Below are positions 3,435 through 58,441 of a stretch of DNA of 61,573 nucleotides, piece by piece. Made by a program: the position numbers and the translations under genes. The stretch is from a virus (taxonomy: Duplodnaviria > Heunggongvirae > Uroviricota > Caudoviricetes). The DNA lies in the IMG/VR virus record IMGVR_UViG_2778261122_000001, positions 1 through 61,573 of that record. One strand, written 5' to 3'. Each line of letters opens with the position of its first letter. The first letter of the stretch is position 1. A model generated the notes under the pieces. The model saw only the letters and a list, made by a program, of their open reading frames with translations. It was not told the origin of the DNA and did no database searches.

Positions 3435-5992
3435 CGCCCACCTCCGGAGAACAGACCACCATCACGCATCTGCCCGGTCACAACATCCATTGCCGCCTTA
3501 CGGGCTACGTCATAAACAGCCTTCAGCGCCTGTGGCCCTATCTGACCGTTCGTGCCGTCGTTGTTAATCACCACATGGTTATTCTGCTCAAACGTCCCGG
3601 ACGCCTGCGACCGACTGTCCGCCATGCTGCCCGGTGTACCGACATAACCGCCGGTGGCATAGCCGCGCATCAGCCGGTAAAGATTCCCCACGCCAATCCG
3701 GCTGGTTGCCTCCTTCGTGAAGACAAATTCACCACGGTGAACAATCCCCGCTGGCTCATATTTGCCGCCGGTTCCCGTAAATCCTCCGGTCGCAAAATGG
3801 AGTTTCGCCGCAGCTGCCTGAATGGCTGTACCGCCTGACGCTGATGCGCCACCACTGGCAGCACCGCCAATGGCGCTGCCGATACTCCCGACAATCCCCA
3901 CCATTGCCTGCTTAAGCAGAATTTCTGTCATCATGGACAGCACGGAACGGGTGAAGCTGCGCCAGTTCTGTTCACTGCCGGTCAGCATCGCCGCCATATT
4001 CTGTGCAATACCATCAAAGGTCTGCGTGGCTGCACTTTTAACCTGCGACATACTGTCCGTGGCGCTCTCTTCCCACTCACTCCAGCCTGACCTGAGGCCT
4101 GCCATCCAGCTCCCGCGAAGCAGGTCTTCAGCCGCCCAGGTCTTTTTCTGCTCTGACATGACGTTATTCAGCGCCAGAGGATTATCGCCATACTGTTCCT
4201 TCAGGCGCTGTTCTGTGGCTTCCCGCGCTGCCTGCCGGTCAGTCAGCCCCCGGCTTTTCGCATCAATGGCGGCCCGTTTTGCCCGTTGCTGCTGTGCGAA
4301 TTTATCCGCCTGCTGCGCCAGCGCATTCAGGCGCTCCTGATACGTGACCTTATCGCCAAGTGCAGCCAGCTGGCGTTTGTACTCCAGCGTCTCATCTTTA
4401 TGCGCCAGCAGGGATTTCTCCTGTGCGGACAGCTGGCGACGTTGTGCCGCCTCCTCCAGTACCGCGAACTGACTCTCCGCCTTCCACAAATCCCGGCGCT
4501 GCTGGCTGATTTTCTCATTCGCTCCGGCATGCTTCTCCAGCGTCCGGAGTTCTGCCTGAAGCGTCAGCAGGGCAGCATGAGCACTGTCTTCCTGACGATC
4601 GCCCGCAGACACCTTCACGCCGGACTGTTTCGGCTTTTTCAGCGTCGCTTCATAGTCCTTTTTCGCCGCCGCCATCAGCGTGTTGTAATCTGCCTGCAGG
4701 ATTTTCCCGTCTTTCAGTGCCTTATTCAGTTCTTCCTGACGGGCGGTATATTTCTCCAGCGGCGTCTGCAGGCGTTCGTAAGCCTTCTGCGCCTCTTCGG
4801 TATATTTCAGCCGTGACGCTTCGGTATCGCTCTGCTGCTGCGCATTTTTGTCCTGTTGAGTCTGCTGCTCAGCCTTCTTTCTCGCGGCTTCAAGCGCAAG
4901 ACGGGCCTTTTCACGATCATCCCAGTAACGCGCCCGCGCTTCATCGTTAACAAAATAATCATCCTTGCGCAGACTCCAGATGTCGTCCGCTTTCTTAAAC
5001 GCAGCCTCTGCCTTAATCAGCATCTCCTGCGTGGTATCAGGACGACCAATATCCAGCACCGCATCCCACATGGATTTGAATGCCCGCGCTGTCCTGTCTG
5101 CCCAGGTCTCCAGCGTACCCATGTTCTCTTTCAGGCGGCGGGTCTGGTCATCAAACCCTTTCGTCGCGGCCTCGTTCGCCGCCTGCAATGCCCCGGCTTC
5201 ATCGCCGGAACGCTGCAACTGAGCAACATACGCAATCTGCTCCGCCGTCACGTTATGGAACTGACGTGCCATCGCTGTCAGTCCCGACGTCGGGTCTGTG
5301 GTCAGCTTCCCGAAGGCTTCAGCGACCTTGTCCACCTCCACGCCGGATGCAGAGGAGAAACGCGCCACACTCTGGCTGATCGCCTCAAACTGCTCACCAC
5401 CACGCACACCTGCATTCACCAGCGCCGTCAGTGACTCGCTGGTCTGGTTAAACGTCAGCCCTGCCGCCTGCCCGGCTCTGGACAGGACCAGCATACGATC
5501 TGCCGTCAGACCCGACTGATTGCCGGAAAGGACCAGCGTTTTGTTGAAATCGGACAGGGTTGAGTTGCCCTGATACCAGGCATACGCCAGCGCACCGGTC
5601 GCCACCGCCAGCGAGGTGGCCCCGACCATCGGCAGGGTGATCGCACCGGCAAGCCCTCTGAACATGGGGATCATCCCGCCGAAGGAGTCCTTCACCTGAC
5701 CACCCTGTTGCAGCAGGATCAGCCACGGACTTTGCCCGCCTGCAAGCTGCGTGGCCACGTCGGTGAACTGCGCAGGCAGCATACGCATGGCGGCTTTATA
5801 CTGCCCGACGGAAATCCCCGCTTTCTGTGCAGCCAGTGCCTGTCGGCTCAGCGACTGTTCAACGACTGCCGCTGTTTTTTTCGCATCACTTTCCGTACCG
5901 GAAAAATGACGCCTGACTCTGGCCATCTGCTCGTCAAATCTGGCCGCATCCAGACTTAAATCAACGACCAGATCGCCTACCGGTTCAGCCAT
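3431..5992 (-). CDS. H: Tail tape measure protein H
   Basis: 853 aa, same length as lambda gpH; long coiled-coil middle, Gly-rich C-terminus. Confidence 0.9.
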   Translation of the reverse strand: MAEPVGDLVVDLSLDAARFDEQMARVRRHFSGTESDAKKTAAVVEQSLSRQALAAQKAGISVGQYKAAMRMLPAQFTDVATQLAGGQSPWLILLQQGGQVKDSFGGMIPMFRGLAGAITLPMVGATSLAVATGALAYAWYQGNSTLSDFNKTLVLSGNQSGLTADRMLVLSRAGQAAGLTFNQTSESLTALVNAGVRGGEQFEAISQSVARFSSASGVEVDKVAEAFGKLTTDPTSGLTAMARQFHNVTAEQIAYVAQLQRSGDEAGALQAANEAATKGFDDQTRRLKENMGTLETWADRTARAFKSMWDAVLDIGRPDTTQEMLIKAEAAFKKADDIWSLRKDDYFVNDEARARYWDDREKARLALEAARKKAEQQTQQDKNAQQQSDTEASRLKYTEEAQKAYERLQTPLEKYTARQEELNKALKDGKILQADYNTLMAAAKKDYEATLKKPKQSGVKVSAGDRQEDSAHAALLTLQAELRTLEKHAGANEKISQQRRDLWKAESQFAVLEEAAQRRQLSAQEKSLLAHKDETLEYKRQLAALGDKVTYQERLNALAQQADKFAQQQRAKRAAIDAKSRGLTDRQAAREATEQRLKEQYGDNPLALNNVMSEQKKTWAAEDLLRGSWMAGLRSGWSEWEESATDSMSQVKSAATQTFDGIAQNMAAMLTGSEQNWRSFTRSVLSMMTEILLKQAMVGIVGSIGSAIGGAASGGASASGGTAIQAAAAKLHFATGGFTGTGGKYEPAGIVHRGEFVFTKEATSRIGVGNLYRLMRGYATGGYVGTPGSMADSRSQASGTFEQNNHVVINNDGTNGQIGPQALKAVYDVARKAAMDVVTGQMRDGGLFSGGGR

Positions 5993-10455: not shown

Positions 10456-10788
10456 TTAAACGATGCTGATTGCCGTTCCGGCAAACGCGGTCCGTTTTTT
10501 CGTCTCGTCGCTGGCAGCCTCCGGCCAGAGCACATCCTCATAACGGAACGTGCCGGACTTGTAGAACGTCAGCGTGGTGCTGGTCTGGTCAGCAGCAACC
10601 GCAAGAATGCCAACGGCAGCACCGTCGGTGGTGCCATCCCACGCAACCAGCTTACGGGTGGAGGTGTCCAGCATCAGCGGAGTCATTGCAGGCGCTTTCG
10701 CACTCAATCCGCCGGGCGCGGTTGCGGTATGAGCCGGGTCACTGTTGCCCAGCGGCTGGTAATGGGTAAAGGTTTCTTTGCTCGTCAT
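10456..10788 (-). CDS. D: Head decoration protein D
   Basis: Start trimmed to [12 protein letters not shown], lambda gpD; 110 aa. Confidence 0.9.
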
Positions 10789-10797
10789 AAACATCCC

Positions 10798-12097
10798 TTA
10801 CACTGGTGTGTTCAGCAAATCGTTAACGGCATCAGATGCCGGGTTACCTGCAGCCAGTGGTGCCGGTGCACCCTGCATCAGACGATCCAGCGCAGTGTCA
10901 CTGCGCGCCTGTGCACTCTGTGGTGCTGCGGCCAGAATGCGGCGGGCCGTTTCCACGGTCATTCCGGGGGTTTCTGCCAGAACGCGCGCCTGTTCTTCGC
11001 GTCCGTGAGCCTCCTCACAGTTGAGGATCCCCATAATGCGGCTGTTTTCTGCCGCAACCGCTGCGGTGATCTGCGCGTTCACGTCCGGCTGCGCCGCGCT
11101 GGCGTTTTCGCCCTCCGTCGCTTGCACCACGTCAGTAACGTCAGCCTGCGAAGCGGTGGCTGAAACAGTTGTTGATTGAGTCTCTTTGGTCATTCGCCCT
11201 CCTGAGAGACGGGATTTACGTGCATCCAGTGCATCACGCATGACGGTGATCGCATCGGTGCTGTTAACAAGTTCATCAGCCAGTCCGGCATCAATGGCCT
11301 CCTGACCGCTGTACACTGCAGCCTCGGTATCCAGCACAGCCTGCACGGACAGGCCGGTATATGCCGACACCTTCTGCGCAAACATCTGGCGGGTTGCATC
11401 CATCCGGGACTGCAGTGTCTCCCGGACGTCATCCGGAAGATGGCTGTAGGGGTTGCCATCCACCTTATGGCTGCCGCTGTAAATCAGCGTGATTTCCACG
11501 CCCTGTTTCTCCAGCGCAGCACCGTAATTACTGTGAGCCATCATGACGCCGATGGAGCCTGTCCGGGCGGTCTGCGTGACCAGACGCCGGGAGGCGGCGC
11601 TGGCAAGCAGCTGACCTGCACTGCAGTTCATGTCGTTGGCCAGCGCCCATACAGGTTTTATGTCACGCACACGGGCGATGATGTCAGCGCAGTCAAATGC
11701 CCCTGCCACCATTCCACCGGGCGTGTCCATATCGAGCAGAATGCCGTCCACCATCGGGTCACTGGCAGCCTGTTGCAGACGGGCGATAATGCCGTTGTAA
11801 CCGGTCATCCCCGAATAAGGCTGCAGCGCCCGCGTCCGGCTGACCAGCGTACCGGACACCGGCAGCACGGCGATGCCGTTCATGACCTGATAACTGCGGG
11901 CCTGTCGTGGTCCGTCACCATCACCGGCTAACGCCAGCGTCGCGGGTGCCTCCTGGGCAGTCAGGCTGTCGCCGGACACCGCATCCGTCAGGCGGCTGAT
12001 CCCTGGCTGGCCTGCAAGCGCACAAAAGAAAACCCGCGCATAGGCGGGTTCAAGCATCAGCGGCTCATTAAAGGCCATGCTGGCAATATGCGGGAGA

Positions 12098-37755: not shown

Positions 37756-37817
37756 GTCAATATTTCCTAATCCGATTTGTTGATACCGAAGCCCTGACTG
37801 TTACCGCAGTTGGGGCT

Positions 37818-38042
37818 TCAACTTTTCACTTCTTTAAAGTGCCTACCTTCTACAGTTGCTCTGAGATAAAAATTCTTATCTTTACCGTTTAGTGCTTCCC
37901 AAGCATCAACAATGCACTTATTACAGATGTGGACTTCTCGATAACCAATAGCTTTCCTGTCAATATTAGTGAACATAACAGTTTCTTTATCTGTCAATGT
38001 GGATGCATGACAGAAGTCGCAATCTATATAAGATACCTTCAT
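37818..38042 (-). CDS. Hypothetical Cys-rich protein inserted between arc and ant
   Basis: 74 aa with CDFC...CNKC spacing. Confidence 0.35.
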   Translation of the reverse strand: MKVSYIDCDFCHASTLTDKETVMFTNIDRKAIGYREVHICNKCIVDAWEALNGKDKNFYLRATVEGRHFKEVKS

Positions 38043-43590: not shown

Positions 43591-44265
43591 TTAAAACAAT
43601 GATCCAAGACCACCGATAATACCGCCACCAATAGCGCCAACAGCTGTACCTATTCCAGGCACCACAGAGCCAATCATCGCCCCTGATGCCGCACCGCTCA
43701 TGGCACCGCCCAAAGCTGATTGCAATCCTGATGGTCGGTTAGCATTCGCCGCAGATGCTGCCGCCTGCTGTTGATACAATTGGCTGACGTTGTTAGCGTA
43801 GTTCTGTCCGGCGTTTGCCTGACCTGTAAGAGCACCAAGGCCGATATTTGCCAGATTGTTGTAGTTGTTCATCTGACCTGACAGCCAGTTTTGACCGAGT
43901 GTAGGTGCGATTGCTGCTAACTGGTTTCCTGTTGCTGTAGAGCCTAATCCACCCGTTGCCTCTGCTGCTGCCAGACTCTGGTAACGCGCCTGCCCTGCAA
44001 GGTCTTTATACTGCTGGGAGTTGTAATACTGGTTAAGCGCCTGACCTTGCCCCTGAAGAGAGGAAAGATTCTGCAACTGTGATACGTACTGCTGAGCGAG
44101 TGGCGTGAACGGTGCAAGGTTTTGCATGTTCGTCTGCCACATTTCACGCTGCAGTTCGATGCCCTTTTCAGTTGCGCGTGCCTGGGCTTTTGAACCGCCA
44201 TCACTGCCACCTTTGCAGTAAACAGTTTTGCTGAGGTGCTTATTGGCAATCTGGAAAATTAACAT
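43591..44265 (-). CDS. Ejection protein, P22 gp7 type
   Basis: 224 aa, Gly-rich C-terminus; position and size. Confidence 0.75.
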   Translation of the reverse strand: MLIFQIANKHLSKTVYCKGGSDGGSKAQARATEKGIELQREMWQTNMQNLAPFTPLAQQYVSQLQNLSSLQGQGQALNQYYNSQQYKDLAGQARYQSLAAAEATGGLGSTATGNQLAAIAPTLGQNWLSGQMNNYNNLANIGLGALTGQANAGQNYANNVSQLYQQQAAASAANANRPSGLQSALGGAMSGAASGAMIGSVVPGIGTAVGAIGGGIIGGLGSLF

Positions 44266-44722
44266 TCTTTAGCTCCTCGTATTTTGAGCGCGGTAACTGA
44301 TAAATCGTGATGCCTACAGGCTTTCCATTGCTGGTATAAGCATCATCAAGGTGACCAACACGGGTAGCGCCAAGCAAACGGATAATTGCCCGTCCGTATT
44401 TCGTTGTGTCAGGAACCATGGTGATGCTGTTAAGGAATGGTGAGTTTTCGAGAAGCCATTTGCAGAATAATCGATGCCCTTGCAGTGCATATTCACCACG
44501 GAATCCGGGGTCGTACACCGCATGGCATTCAACAACGCTATGCCAGAAGTTACGCACTTCATGAACGCCAGCCAGCACTAATCCTTCGTAGATGCCGAGG
44601 TATACCGCATCAGGCTTGATGTAGTATTTATCTCCACTGTCTACGATATTTCCCGTGTTTGCCGGGTTGTTAAGGAATTCTGCAAGCTTCACCGGGTTAT
44701 CGATGAGCTTTATTTCCATCAC
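44240..44722 (-). CDS. Head-completion/ejection-associated protein, P22 gp14 type
   Basis: 160 aa; position and size. Confidence 0.7.
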
Positions 44723-45672
44723 TGCTCCGCAATGATTTTGATTGTTGTGGCAGTAAACGCCGCACCATTTGACTGAATGGTTAACGTGCTGCCATTTGTG
44801 GCAAGAAAGCCGTCTTTATCCACGCTGAAGAACGTAGCTAACAAGATGTTATCGGTTGTTGTCGCCGAGTTGCGACTGCTTACCAGTGTGTCAGGAACAG
44901 AGCCGGAAAAGGTTAGCTGCATTGACCTGTTGGTGGTTCCGCTGGGCCACGTCCCGACAATAGACAGCTTGAAGAACAAGGTTTTGTTCTCGTTGAACAC
45001 AACCATCTTGTTGTTAACGGTGTCGAAGAATGGTGCCAACGTGCCGGATGACGGCGTGAGCGTTTTCAGCAGGCTAACAAGGTTGGTCGGCGCTGTTGGA
45101 ATGGTTACCGATACTCCTGAGTAAACAACCTCTGACTTCTTGCGAGTAGTGGCATACTCAAGCGCAGATATTCTTGTTGAGTGATCACCAACTGTGCTTT
45201 GAAGCGTCGAAATGCTTCCTTCAGCCGCTGTTAGCCTGGTATCCAGTGCGTCGATATCTGTTGCATTCTGAGTTATGCGCGCATTATGGTTTGCTAACTC
45301 AGATTCATTGGCAGCAATTCGCGTCTCGTGATCAGCCAGCTCTGTTTCAGCAGCCGTAATCCTTGTTTCATGATCTGCAAGAGTGCTTTCCGCTGCTGAA
45401 ATTCTATGTTCATGATTGGTGAGAGTTGCTTCAGCAGCTTCAATTCTGGATTCATGGTCTGCAAGGGTGACATCCTGCTCATCATTCTTCACCTGTGCAT
45501 CATAAGCCCCCTTCCCTGCTTCGTTGGCCTTGTTTGCCACGTTACCAACATCAGCACCCTGTGCAATAACGTACAACAGATATGACTGCGAGAAGATATC
45601 GCGTGGAAGGACTGATGTGTCGAGTCGTGTAGCCTGAATGATTACCGGCTCATTGAGATTCGAATCAGCCAT
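44719..45672 (-). CDS. Tail needle protein (gp26 type) with heptad-repeat coiled coil and C-terminal knob
   Basis: Tandem [11 protein letters not shown] heptads mirrored as DNA repeats; 317 aa. Confidence 0.75.
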
Positions 45673-54549: not shown

Positions 54550-55071
54550 TCAGCACGCGATATCGAGAGTCAACTGCAGTTGCTCACGCCAGTACTCGAC
54601 ATTTGCTTCAATAACCGGCTTATCCCATCGCCAGCGAGCCATCTCTCTTGCCCCATTGCTGGCTTTTGATTTCCGGTCATCGCGAATGCGACATGCTTGC
54701 TCATATTTCTGCTGCTCAGTCAGTTCACCGCGAAGCAGACTATCAATGTGCAGGTCGCACCATACGGAGAATTTCGGATCGCACCATCTTGCAAAGGCAA
54801 CTGATAACTTTGGATGCAGCCATGTTCCGCCGCCCCTGTCCTTTCGTGCCTTGCTTGTTTTTACATACCCGGAATCACGGGTATGTAGAATTTTCGATGG
54901 TTCACCTGAATAAACCTCATCCAGAGCTCTAACGTATTCGAGAGTTTCAGCGTTGGACAACCAGTGATCCAGACGCTTCCCGAAACGTTTTGCAATATCA
55001 GTGGCATTAATCCAGCCATCAGTATTGAAGCGGATAGGTTCGCCTTTGTAATTTAGTGGAACGATATTCAT
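54550..55071 (-). CDS. KilA-N domain protein
   Basis: 173 aa; WINATDIAKRFGK...GGGTWLHPKLSVAFARW pattern. Confidence 0.65.
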   Translation of the reverse strand: MNIVPLNYKGEPIRFNTDGWINATDIAKRFGKRLDHWLSNAETLEYVRALDEVYSGEPSKILHTRDSGYVKTSKARKDRGGGTWLHPKLSVAFARWCDPKFSVWCDLHIDSLLRGELTEQQKYEQACRIRDDRKSKASNGAREMARWRWDKPVIEANVEYWREQLQLTLDIAC

Positions 55072-55415
55072 AGCGTCTTACCTTTTAGAAAGATGAGCCT
55101 GTTCGCACAGAAAAGCCGCCCCGAGATGGTCGCCACCATATACGGCAGTTCTCAGGCTCAGCTTTCTGAAAGACTCGGGATTGTTACGCGCTGCGATGCG
55201 CGGTTTACTGCAGATGTAAAAAAGCCCCGCTACTGCGAGGCTAAATCCTGGTGTTTGTGATGACTGGCCCTTATCTCAACGCAGCCCCTTACCGCGCGCC
55301 AGATGCTCAATATCAAGCATCAGCAATGAGATGTTTAATCTGGATTCACTCCAGAAGTGATCACCACCCTGTCTACAGAGCCAGATGTGAAGGATGATGA
55401 GTAAAATTATCGCTA

Positions 55416-55895: not shown

Positions 55896-56377
55896 AAACA
55901 GACTTCACGCTCAATATCACGACGGGTCATCAGCCCTTTCCATTGCTTACCGCCAGCGTATGTCCAGCGACGTAGCTGGTCACATGCGCCTTTGATATCG
56001 CCCTGGTTTATTTTGCGAAGAAGCGTCGATGTTCTGAAATTGCCTGCACCCACGTTGTAAACGAACGAGTAAAGAGCGCCGCGCGTTGTTTCCGGTATAT
56101 CGACTTTGATGTACGGGTTAATTTGTCTGGCGACCGTGGCAAGGTCTTTATTCAGGAGGGCTTTGCATTCTGCTTCGGTATACGTTTTACCGGGAATGAT
56201 GTCTTTTCCTGTATGCCCGTAACATACAGTCCATACACCAACTATGTCTTTGTAAGGATTATGTCTCACACCTTCCAGACCATCGTTACCACTTGGGCCA
56301 GTGATTAACACAGATGCTATGGCAATAGCCCCGCCACCAATAGCAGCAGCAACGGCTTTTCGTAATGATGGAGGCAT
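55880..56377 (-). CDS. R: SAR-endolysin (phage 21 R / RrrD type lysozyme)
   Basis: 165 aa; matches remembered E. coli RrrD/R21. Confidence 0.85.
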
Positions 56378-56592
56378 TATTCACCTCTCGCAGCCTTTCG
56401 TCTGTCTTCTCTGATTTTGAAATACAGATTTGTCAGATAAGTGAGAAAACCCAACACAAGGCTTCCAAGCACTCCAATCGCAGCCCACTGTGACGGACTG
56501 ACCTGATCCAACCACTGCAAAAACCAGTATCCTGCACTACCAGCAGATGTTCCGTAGGCAATGCCAGTTGAGATTTTGTCCATTGATTTCAT
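56377..56592 (-). CDS. S: Pinholin S (phage 21 S21 type)
   Basis: 71 aa, close to remembered S21. Confidence 0.85.
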
Positions 56593-56862: not shown

Positions 56863-56924
56863 TATAAAAAATCCCGAAACCGTTATGCAGGCTCTAACTA
56901 TTACCTGCGAACTGTTTCGGGATT
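56863..56924 (-). terminator. tR'-like terminator at the end of a lambda-type 6S leader
   Basis: Minus strand AATCCCGAAAC...GTTTCGGGATT hairpin followed by TTTTTTAT, as in the remembered lambda 6S RNA 3' end. Confidence 0.7.
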
Positions 56925-57054
56925 GCATTTTGCAGACCTCTCAGCCTGCGATGGTTGGAGTTCCAGACGATGCGTCGAAGTGACCAACTAGGCGGAATCG
57001 GTAGTAAGCGCCGCCTCTTTTTATCTTACTACCACAACGAGCGAATTAACCCAT

Positions 57055-57546
57055 CTATCCCATACTGGAGAATTCACCATGATATTTTATCCTGGCATTT
57101 TCCATTGCCTTTCTAGCCTCCTCGATATCGTCAAAACACCCTACATGAATCCTTTTACCATTAACTCTAATTCTTCCAACCCACTTGTTTGCAGCAGAAT
57201 TAAAAGTCACCCCCTTCACACCAGATGAATTGTTTTTCCTCATCTTGCTGTTCCATGAGTTTTGAGTGTTAGTAACAACACGAAGATTGGCTATCCGGTT
57301 ATCAGACCTATCACCATTAATATGGTCAATAACATCGGTTGGCCAATCATTGTAAACCATCAGCCATGCAATTCTATGGACATATAGCCGCATTCCATAA
57401 AGTTTTACCTGCAGATATCCATTTGTTTTATAGCCAACAACAGCGCCATAGATAAATCTAGAGGACCGAGGTGGATTCTTCCATGTAAGAATTCCAGTAT
57501 CTGGATTGTAATTAAAAAGTCTCAATGCATCTTCACGTTTTAACAT
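57055..57546 (-). CDS. HNH homing endonuclease with AP2-like C-terminal DNA-binding domain
   Basis: YVHRIAW...DHINGDRSDNRIANLR HNH motif; C-terminal GVTFNSAANKWVGRIRVNGKRIHVGCF AP2-like. Confidence 0.8.
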   Translation of the reverse strand: MLKREDALRLFNYNPDTGILTWKNPPRSSRFIYGAVVGYKTNGYLQVKLYGMRLYVHRIAWLMVYNDWPTDVIDHINGDRSDNRIANLRVVTNTQNSWNSKMRKNNSSGVKGVTFNSAANKWVGRIRVNGKRIHVGCFDDIEEARKAMENARIKYHGEFSSMG

Positions 57547-57739
57547 AGGCGAACCACATAGATATTAGAGCCTGCTGACATAGAAATATCACCACGAGAG
57601 AAGTCGCCAAAAGCGATATTTCTCAGGCTCTATTCCTATGTGCTCTCGAGTTTATGATGCGCATGTCAGTGCGCTTAGAACTTAAAGATGAGGTGGGTAA
57701 AAGCTGAAAGAATGTGAACGGATATAAATCTGCCATTCT

Positions 57740-57780
57740 TGGGTCAAATTTACCCAACTTTATTCAAAAAGTCAATATCA
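57740..57780 (-). promoter_or_regulatory. Late promoter pR' with Q-utilisation region (lambda type)
   Basis: Minus strand TTGACTTTTTGAATAAAGTTGGGTAAATTTGACCCAAGAATGG closely matches remembered lambda pR'. Confidence 0.65.
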
Positions 57781-57817: not shown

Positions 57818-58441
57818 CTAACGTGTGACTGCATTCAAAATATTGTCTGCAATTGACTCTTCCTTGTGGCATTGCACCACCAGAGCGTCATACAGCGGCT
57901 TAACAGTGCGTGACCAGGTGGGTTGGGTAAGGTTTGGGATTAGCATCGTTACAGCGCGATATGCGGCGCTTGCTGGCATTCTTGAATAGCCGACACCTTT
58001 GCATCTTCCGCACTCTTTCTCAACAACTCTCCCCCACTGCTCTGTTTTGGCTATATCAACCGCACGGCCTGTACCGTGGCAATCTCTGCATCTTGCGCCC
58101 GGCGTCGCGGCACTACGGCAATAATCCGCATAAGCGAATGTTGCGAGCACTTGCAGTACCTTTGCCTTAGTATTTCCTTCAAGCTTTGCCACACCACGGT
58201 ATTTCCCCGATACATTGTGTGCAAATTGCATCAGATAGTTGATAGCCTTTTGTTTGTCGTTCTGGCTGAGTTCGTGCTTACCACAGAATGCAGCCATTCC
58301 GAATCCGGCTTGTGATTGCGCCATCCCCATAGCAGCCATCACATCAGTACCGGAAAGAGAGTCAGAAGCCGTAGCCCGTGGTGAGTCGCTCATCATCGGG
58401 CTTTTTGGCGAGTGAAATTTAGCTACGCTTTCGAGTCTCAT
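57818..58441 (-). CDS. Q: Late antiterminator Q (lambda type)
   Basis: 207 aa, near-identical to remembered lambda Q. Confidence 0.9.
   Translation of the reverse strand: MRLESVAKFHSPKSPMMSDSPRATASDSLSGTDVMAAMGMAQSQAGFGMAAFCGKHELSQNDKQKAINYLMQFAHNVSGKYRGVAKLEGNTKAKVLQVLATFAYADYCRSAATPGARCRDCHGTGRAVDIAKTEQWGRVVEKECGRCKGVGYSRMPASAAYRAVTMLIPNLTQPTWSRTVKPLYDALVVQCHKEESIADNILNAVTR

Follow-up and report, generated by a model that had tools for sequence, protein, structure and literature searches.

Free-standing HNH genes of phages (PHROG 99/HNH_3, with I-HmuI-like genes and the Mob genes of T-even phages) are the closest described counterparts of the element considered here, a cassette with a gene for an HNH_3 endonuclease with a C-terminal AP2 domain in the late leader of a P22-like and Kapi1-like prophage (IMG/VR record IMGVR_UViG_2778261122_000001; 'the window' is the whole stretch analysed, 61,573 nucleotides). 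Like them, the window gene is a small intergenic open reading frame (ORF) with this pair of domains, it is polymorphic for presence and absence at a single site, and some of its copies are decaying. Unlike them, it belongs to a temperate phage and lies between a promoter and its attenuating terminator, inside a transcript that is non-coding and regulatory, and it carries a complex, pseudoknotted leader RNA. This is a gene of a known kind in a new regulatory niche. On balance, we consider it probable that a free-standing homing-endonuclease cassette, consisting of a spacer, the leader RNA and the HNH-AP2 gene, entered a lambda-type late leader at position +3. The leader RNA itself, a widespread and uncatalogued double pseudoknot, is a by-product of the analysis that is more interesting than the insertion.

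The interval from the antiterminator gene Q to the holin gene, 3′ of the late promoter pR′, is known as a frequent point of entry for foreign DNA in lambdoid phages (PMC4104026). The cargo of this moron site includes stx, tRNA genes and the anti-sRNAs (sRNA, small RNA) AgvB and AsxR, and tRNA-Asn/Thr genes are found in the same interval in HK446 and in two of the loci compared, L006 and L002. The tRNA cargo of HK446 and L006 lies downstream of the terminator tR′ and is hence Q-dependent, whereas the window cassette lies upstream of tR′, at +3. It also departs from the classical moron, which consists of promoter, gene and terminator, in that neither a promoter nor a terminator of its own was detected.

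The late control module and its insert

All features of the locus are on the minus strand of the window, and the lambda reference used for BLAST and alignments is NC_001416. The control module and the insert are made up as follows.

57818..58441, minus strand: lambda-type antiterminator gene Q, 207 aa (Pfam Antiterm, 192.7 bits; 96.6% DNA identity with lambda Q)
57747..57775, minus strand: late promoter pR′ (alignment with lambda 44552-44588; 9/12 matches in a consensus scan)
57721..57740, minus strand: rebuilt sigma70-dependent pause module (sequence compared with the lambda architecture of PMC5001585)
57056..57738, minus strand: 683-bp insert relative to lambda, HK446 and Kapi1 (BLAST and alignments)
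57676..57738, minus strand: 5′ spacer of the insert, homologous to the late leaders of relatives with other Q types in their promoter-proximal part
57547..57675, minus strand: structured leader RNA, copy 1 (model match 57538-57675; covariance model, 138 bits)
57055..57546, minus strand: ORF for the HNH_3 + AP2 endonuclease, 163 aa, identical to WP_000919140.1 (Pfam, PHROG, AlphaFold2)
56865..57055, minus strand: rest of the lambda-type 6S leader, from lambda +4 (91-100% identity with lambda and HK446)
56377..56592, minus strand: S21-type holin gene, the first downstream late gene (Pfam Phage_holin_2_1, 122 bits)

The original prediction, that an HNH-AP2 ORF lies within the leader between an intact lambda-type pR′, just after Q, and the 6S/tR′ terminator, holds, and alignment to lambda defines both junctions. 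Window 58448-57739 corresponds to lambda 43878-44588 (96.6%) and window 57055-56651 to lambda 44590-45003 (91.3%), so that the insert stands in place of a single base, the C at +3 (lambda 44589). The predicted length of about 690 bp was close to the exact 683 bp; the predicted break some 14 nt into the transcript has to be moved, as colinearity with lambda stops at +2 and the similarity up to +8 looks like chance. At the other end the insert finishes in ...GGGATA, and the G that follows, which completes the TAG stop codon of the HNH gene (57055), is lambda +4. As had been predicted, lambda sequence picks up again at this stop codon, as GATGGGTTAATTCGCTCG, and runs on to tR′, which is intact with hairpin and U-tract (56865-56924). 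The short flanking duplication, given before as GATGG, is real but imperfect: GAATGG on the left faces GATGG on the right, and ATGG alone is exact. The insert has a GC content of 39.8%, against 48-51% in the flanks.

The promoter has its -35 element (TTGACT) at 57775-57770, its -10 element (TAAATT) at 57752-57747 and +1 at 57740, and the 17-nt spacer contains the Q-binding element (QBE). It is kept in every occupied and empty allele compared, identical save for natural variants. Judged by sequence, the locus has all the parts of a lambda-type Q/pR′/tR′ system, namely Q, the promoter with its QBE, a -10-like element at +1 to +6 and an intrinsic terminator.

Empty sites exist in relatives. In HK446, Kapi1, mEp506 and phiv205-1 both flanks are matched and the site between them, 129 bp, is empty, the site is likewise empty in lambda, and about 680 E. 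coli genomes are empty or partial. The insert occurs in 0 of 50,697 GenBank phage records. Among the 2.9 million viral contigs of IMG/VR there is no empty site that reads AAG[AG]ATGGGTTAATTCG, which means that the G and the A or G at +3/+4 come in with the insert. No Rfam intron model matched, and the insert does not appear to be borne by an intron or intein, since nothing of it extends beyond the stop codon, which overlaps the junction, and the host sequence is non-coding.

In lambda, the sigma70-dependent pause at which Q loads is set by a -10-like element, the discriminator GGG at +7 to +9 and a downstream AT-rich or elemental-pause sequence (Bird et al. 2016, PMC5001585). The occupied allele has AAGAAT at +1 to +6, GGC at +7 to +9 and the AT-rich AGATTTATAT, where the lambda counterpart is AACGAT-GGG-TTAATTCG, with TTAATT as the AT-rich part. 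Only the AA of the hexamer comes from the target; GAAT and everything downstream are supplied by the insert. The first 60 nt or so of the insert are homologous to the promoter-proximal sequence of relatives with other Q types, and in those relatives too a -10-like hexamer, GG[G/C] and an AT-rich tract follow pR′. The module thus resembles those of the lambda and phage 82 pR′ promoters in its hexamer, GC discriminator and AT-rich tract, and differs from them in its actual sequence and in having been supplied by the insert for part of the hexamer and all that lies downstream. Since the three parts of the pause module are recreated in this way by the first 20 nt of the insert, and the QBE and promoter lie unaltered upstream of the junction, Q loading is probably preserved rather than broken. 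The original prediction had suggested that the insert might disrupt the Q-loading region, which was probably the wrong emphasis.

Consensus scanning of the sense strand from +1 to the ORF gave no promoter and no intrinsic terminator. The HNH gene, which is co-oriented with the late operon, has no terminator of its own, the nearest being the resident tR′. The pR′ promoter is constitutively active, and in lysogens its transcript ends at the first terminator (PMC7547250). As the HNH gene is upstream of tR′ and pR′ is always on, we infer that HNH mRNA is made from pR′ without Q, in lysogens too, in the form of a '6S' RNA lengthened to about 875 nt. This RNA would share promoter, terminator and the 3′ 190 nt with lambda 6S RNA and StxS, and would differ from them in its predicted length (about 875 nt rather than 194 nt) and in carrying a structured leader and a coding sequence.

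The encoded protein matches HNH_3 (PF13392) over residues 55-97 with 61.5 bits (cut-off 24.8), AP2 marginally with 33.6 bits (cut-off 33.3), and PHROG 99, annotated as HNH endonuclease, with E = 5e-76. Across 50 homologues of 38-86% identity the HNH motif residues D74, H75, N77, D82, N83, R84, N87, R89 and N99 are invariant. In the AlphaFold2 model (predicted local distance difference test score, pLDDT, 94) the C-terminal domain has the AP2/ERF fold: Foldseek aligns it with the GCC-box domain of AtERF1 (1gcc) at a root-mean-square deviation of 1.3 Å over 49 residues and a probability of 1.00, and the fold also matches WRI1 and TEM1. Relatives are encoded in 3810 phage records, many of them annotated as homing endonucleases, and the nearest protein among sequenced phages is about 46% identical. 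Beyond a cluster at 99% identity, the closest homologues are 86, 74, 66 and 62% identical; each of these four is encoded some 250-270 nt past a Q of another length and type (254-276 aa), so that the place between Q and holin is shared by relatives behind other Q types, and one is in Xenorhabdus bovienii. In the X. bovienii locus (L013, ~1955-2020) an apparent 3′ half of a tRNA (GGTTCGATTCC...CCACCA) directly follows the HNH stop codon and is itself followed by a terminator, and a terminator-like hairpin is also present upstream of the leader RNA.

Spread, diversity and decay of the insert

Our survey took in 5426 complete E. coli genomes, 697 of which match the region. The full insert is present in 16 of these 697, with 98-99% identity and at one exact site, and its core was found at no other location in the 5426 genomes. 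A search limited to one genome per species returned 0 matches to the left-junction pattern, so the insert is a strain-level rather than a species-level feature. Its carriers fall into at least four backbone types and do not represent a single prophage. The identical protein (WP_000919140.1) is encoded behind a lambda-type Q in company with a lambda cos terminase and elsewhere with P22-like terminases; the gene upstream may be ninH or a phosphatase gene, the holin may be of lambda type (S-lambda) or S21, and tRNA-Asn/Thr genes may be present or absent. A partnership of HNH protein and terminase of the HK97 type is unlikely, given that the terminase types differ among carriers.

For 18 occupied alleles the nucleotide diversity is 0.042 in the Q gene, 0.035 in the 80 bp before the junction (the Q-to-pR′ spacer), 0.008 in the insert leader, 0.010 in the HNH ORF and 0.077 in the lambda leader past the junction. 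The insert is thus 4-8 times less diverse than its flanks, and polymorphism sets in no more than 5 nt from the left junction and about 30 nt from the right one. The flanks of occupied alleles are as similar to those of empty alleles as they are to one another, and 12-15 flank haplotypes share one near-identical insert. Segregating sites in intact copies of the ORF are synonymous in 14 cases and nonsynonymous in 8; most copies are under purifying selection.

Other copies have decayed. Four viral contigs carry broken genes, with an internal deletion in two (L014 and L023) and a frameshift in the other two (L018 and L033). In three genomes, of the L002/L003 type, pR′ is kept, but the insert breaks off after 115 nt and the 3′ half of tR′ follows immediately. 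The join coincides with a short repeat:

57624..57632, minus strand: 9-bp direct repeat TAGAGCCTG, copy 1 (copy 2 at 56888-56896, in the tR′ loop)

These genomes have lost the 5′ arm of tR′ and retain only half of the leader RNA, which scores 36 bits with the covariance model against 138 bits for the intact element. We considered whether these alleles might be an independent second kind of leader, in which case the insert would shrink to 568 bp, and rejected this since the RNA is cut off there. The half RNA element, the missing 5′ arm and the join at the 9-bp repeat identify them as deletion derivatives of the occupied allele. In one of them, L003 (NZ_CP065615.1), the tR′ remnant has a 7-nt deletion, and an extra 46-nt insertion (locus ~2590-2640) contains a terminator-like hairpin, CCCCGCCCTGTCGGGCGAGGG followed by T-runs; this hairpin may replace the terminator destroyed by the deletion.

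Taken together, these comparisons give the insert the population signatures of a mobile, first functional and later decaying homing endonuclease gene: occupied and empty alleles, horizontal spread, degeneration and loss. The original prediction of a selfish homing element is borne out as far as polymorphism, spread and decay in the population are concerned, and homing itself, that is, cleavage of the empty site, is a proposal drawn from this pattern. HNH genes occur elsewhere in such phages. The carrier prophage L004 (NZ_CP100486.1, locus 10761-10910) has a separate, truncated HNH pseudogene beside the nohD and terminase genes that is unrelated to the late-leader cassette, and the carrier prophage L007 (NZ_CP076274.1, locus 4214-4780) has another HNH gene between ninF and ninG; lambdoid nin regions, as seen in L007, also collect HNH genes.

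The leader RNA and its distribution

The inverted repeat noted in the original prediction (~57575..57642) is real and extends over 57555-57642, yet it is not a private hairpin of this gene: it comprises helices d and e of a conserved RNA, matched by the model over 57538-57675. This RNA is about 135 nt long and ends at the start codon, and across relatives these 135 nt or so are conserved above the level of the protein. Copy 1 folds with -64 kcal/mol (z = -3.5) and is built from the following parts, in which PK1 and PK2 are pseudoknots.

57659-57674, minus strand: hairpin P1
57624-57642 with 57555-57574, minus strand: helix d, 19 bp with one bulge
57613-57623 with 57582-57593, minus strand: helix e, 11 bp, stacked on d
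57664-57669 with 57575-57580, minus strand: PK1, the P1 loop with a 6-7-nt bulge between the 3′ strands of e and d
57643-57648 with 57595-57600, minus strand: PK2, 6-7 nt just 5′ of d with the apical loop of e
57603-57609, minus strand: invariant UGGCGAC, adjoining PK2

In 20 sequences, 97.2% of the cells of the alignment are paired, as against 32-50% with slid partners; seven pairs show compensatory changes, and the observed score was reached by 0 of 500 shuffles. With 60 distinct sequences, in an alignment fitted to the model and so biased towards structure, 91% are paired against 35-51% with slid partners, and 17 of 35 nested pairs are compensatory. Because loop columns are misaligned in this large, model-fitted alignment, the pseudoknots were scored by complementarity within each sequence against non-cognate controls. 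PK1 occurs as CUGACG:CGUCAG, CUGACA:UGUCAG, UCUCAC:GUGAGA, UCGCA:UGCGA, UAGCAC:GUGCUA and UCACAC:GUGUGA, and PK2 in eight classes, each with its matching partner. A PK2 helix of at least 6 bp is reached by 98% of sequences with the cognate partner and by 36% of the non-cognate combinations; the control for PK1 is weak, as 48% of non-cognate pairs reach 5 bp, P1 being GC-rich. G-U pairs are frequent, and on the reverse strand the model scores 16-24 bits rather than 138, which places the structure on the sense strand. Compensatory changes, strand specificity and a fixed distance from the start codon are all features of a structured, cis-acting leader RNA.

At its 3′ end, helix d is made up of the purine-rich Shine-Dalgarno region, an arrangement that points to control of translation by the leader RNA. 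A consensus scan and inspection of the alignments gave no conserved -35/-10 pair for a sigma70 promoter within the RNA that might free the ribosome-binding site (RBS) as in T4. As the downstream proteins are diverse, the distribution of the element argues against autoregulation and in favour of a shared phage or host factor or of kinetic control; a concrete candidate is RNase III, which might act on the 30-bp coaxial helix. Like the antisense RNA sar of P22, the element is a cis-encoded RNA device directly upstream of genes that would be harmful if expressed at the wrong time (Ant, KilA, Rha or nuclease genes), and its short complementary segments vary between copies. Unlike sar, with which it shares no homology by sequence or model, it is a compact double pseudoknot on the sense strand, not an antisense RNA. 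The c4 antisense RNAs of P1 and P7 and the RBS-sequestering hairpins of T4 homing endonuclease genes offer further comparisons.

A pattern scan placed the leader RNA also ahead of ORFs other than HNH genes, and the covariance model gave a second copy in the window itself.

55065..55202, minus strand: leader RNA, copy 2 (covariance model, 63.7 bits, E = 8e-14)
54550-55071, minus strand: KilA-N gene (Pfam, 85.5 bits)

Copy 2 is 2.3 kb downstream of copy 1, lies directly behind the post-lysis terminator (55217-55242) and runs up to the KilA-N start codon, and its pseudoknots, UCGCA:UGCGA and CCCGAG:CUCGGG, are unlike those of the HNH copy. More widely, the RNA precedes genes for Rha, KilA-N and P22_AR_N (the P22 antirepressor), several HNH lineages and ORFs that have no assigned function, in three slots of the late operon (Q to holin, endolysin to Rz, and after Rz), and the start codon is always 21-24 nt past CAGGCUC. 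It is present in 168 GenBank phage records, among them the phi80 rha leader, epsilon34, Sf101 and 73 Stx2a-converting phages, in more than 120 IMG/VR loci, in many Xenorhabdus species, and in phages of Klebsiella, Enterobacter and Providencia. The subclass of copy 2 alone occurs in 916 of the 5426 E. coli genomes (~17%), where it is never annotated. There is no leader RNA upstream of P22 ORF201.

Rfam 15, with its models of sar, C4, riboswitches and ribozymes, gave no match at E <= 1 for copy 1 and nothing but noise at E <= 10 for copy 2 and for a Xenorhabdus member. No mention of the element turned up in the literature that could be searched, motif strings and Rha/KilA RNA motifs having given unrelated matches, although a description elsewhere is possible; it is treated neither in the Pas-sRNA preprint nor in the anti-sRNA paper. 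A whole-window scan at Rfam gathering thresholds had a single match, sar itself (72.7 bits; 37757-37823, plus strand), which in P22 regulates the antirepressor gene of immI as an antisense RNA. Window 37000-61573 is covered to more than 62% in no complete E. coli genome.

Some individual loci deserve mention. In phi80 (L185, NC_021190) the annotated rha start (1632) lies inside the conserved RNA (1539-1674), and the start used throughout the family is 34 nt downstream; the annotation of rha is probably too long. Xenorhabdus bakwenae (L061/L062) has two copies of the RNA 1.3 kb apart (2529-2666 and ~3840-3980), one before Rha between endolysin and Rz, the other after Rz with no more than the opening codons of a Rha-like ORF behind it, so that this second copy looks like what is left of a cassette. 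The element lies on very short contigs in several assemblies of Xenorhabdus, as expected of a repeat.

Explanations and implications

In the explanation that we favour, the nuclease gene would be transcribed from pR′ without Q as part of the lengthened '6S' RNA, in lysogens as elsewhere. The 5′ end of the insert would provide a working sigma70 pause module, with Q still loading and the late genes remaining Q-dependent. The leader RNA, whose basal helix ends in the Shine-Dalgarno region at its fixed distance before the start codon, would control translation of the nuclease, and the nuclease would cut the empty lambda-type leaders of co-infecting or superinfecting phages, so that repair from the occupied allele spreads the cassette. 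Several observations weigh against this account. The nuclease part of the protein is matched weakly, with a Foldseek probability of ~0.5 for I-PpoI and E = 0.66 by sequence for I-HmuI (1U3E). The repeat at the flanks is not exact, and homologous pause modules may have been exchanged at the left junction, which would then not mark a clean insertion. In lysogens, transcription could be curtailed by Rho-dependent termination within the 190 nt of untranslated leader. The Shine-Dalgarno region has an unpaired probability of 0.13 in HNH copies and of 0.39 on average, which in plain folding amounts to partial occlusion. Finally, low diversity within mosaic flanks can also be obtained by ordinary lambdoid recombination around a recently gained gene.

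This last point leads to an alternative that we regard as rather unlikely, in which RNA and ORF are passive cargo, an exchangeable accessory module gained once, by homologous recombination at the -10/+1 region of pR′ and illegitimate recombination at ATGG, and shuffled since by modular exchange; the protein would then be of use to the phage itself, for instance as a DNA-binding regulator or in keeping out or breaking down the DNA of rivals. The left junction does resemble a module swap, the first ~60 nt of the insert being homologous to the late leaders of phages with other Q types, the region 3′ of pR′ is a recognised site of moron insertion (PMC4104026), and genes that do not encode nucleases (Rha, KilA-N, P22_AR_N) stand behind the leader RNA in three slots. 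However, the 4-8 times lower diversity and the 12-15 flank haplotypes would demand many very short exchange tracts, the series of decay and loss is typical of homing endonuclease genes, and the protein family is annotated as homing endonucleases in thousands of phages. We see only a slim chance that the inverted repeat acts as DNA, as an autoregulatory operator or as a terminator or attenuator. Its position between promoter and ORF would fit such a role, and I-TevI does autoregulate through an operator, but the pairing, the compensatory changes, the G-U pairs confined to the sense strand and the matched pseudoknot classes speak for RNA; there is no U-tract after the helix, and the occurrence of the element with unrelated ORFs excludes autoregulation by the encoded protein. 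Slimmer still, and disfavoured, is the notion that the long HNH leader is ancestral and the short lambda-type leaders are deletion products. The three L002/L003-type genomes, which have the first 115 nt and no HNH gene, look superficially like an independent type of leader, but they are derived, by their truncated RNA, lost 5′ arm and repeat join; moreover, empty alleles differ by just one junction base and are about 40 times commoner, and the insert is foreign in GC content and lower in diversity.

Returning to the homing-endonuclease cassette, its leader RNA may be given a larger role. Tentatively, P1, the 30-bp coaxial helix and the two pseudoknots may define a new class of cis-regulatory RNA that decides when potentially harmful genes for DNA-binding proteins in lambdoid late operons are translated, and a resident HNH prophage might then cut superinfecting lambda-type phages that lack the HNH gene, and so combine homing with exclusion. 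RNase III might act as the trigger, or else some other shared factor or folding during transcription.

The lambda pR′-tR′ 6S leader is the best-studied attenuated phage transcript, and here it contains a coding gene, inserted at +3, where Q loading is decided. The occupied allele thereby serves as a natural experiment: it asks how large a part of the initial transcribed region is required by Q. It also implies that a prophage transcribes a nuclease gene independently of Q. The leader RNA is abundant, unannotated and strongly covarying, it stands before genes of the Rha, KilA-N and antirepressor kinds, the control of which is poorly understood, and phi80 and the Stx phages are systems in which it can be tested directly. 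If the RNA does gate these genes, the '6S' transcript of the lysogen would become a conditionally translated nuclease mRNA.

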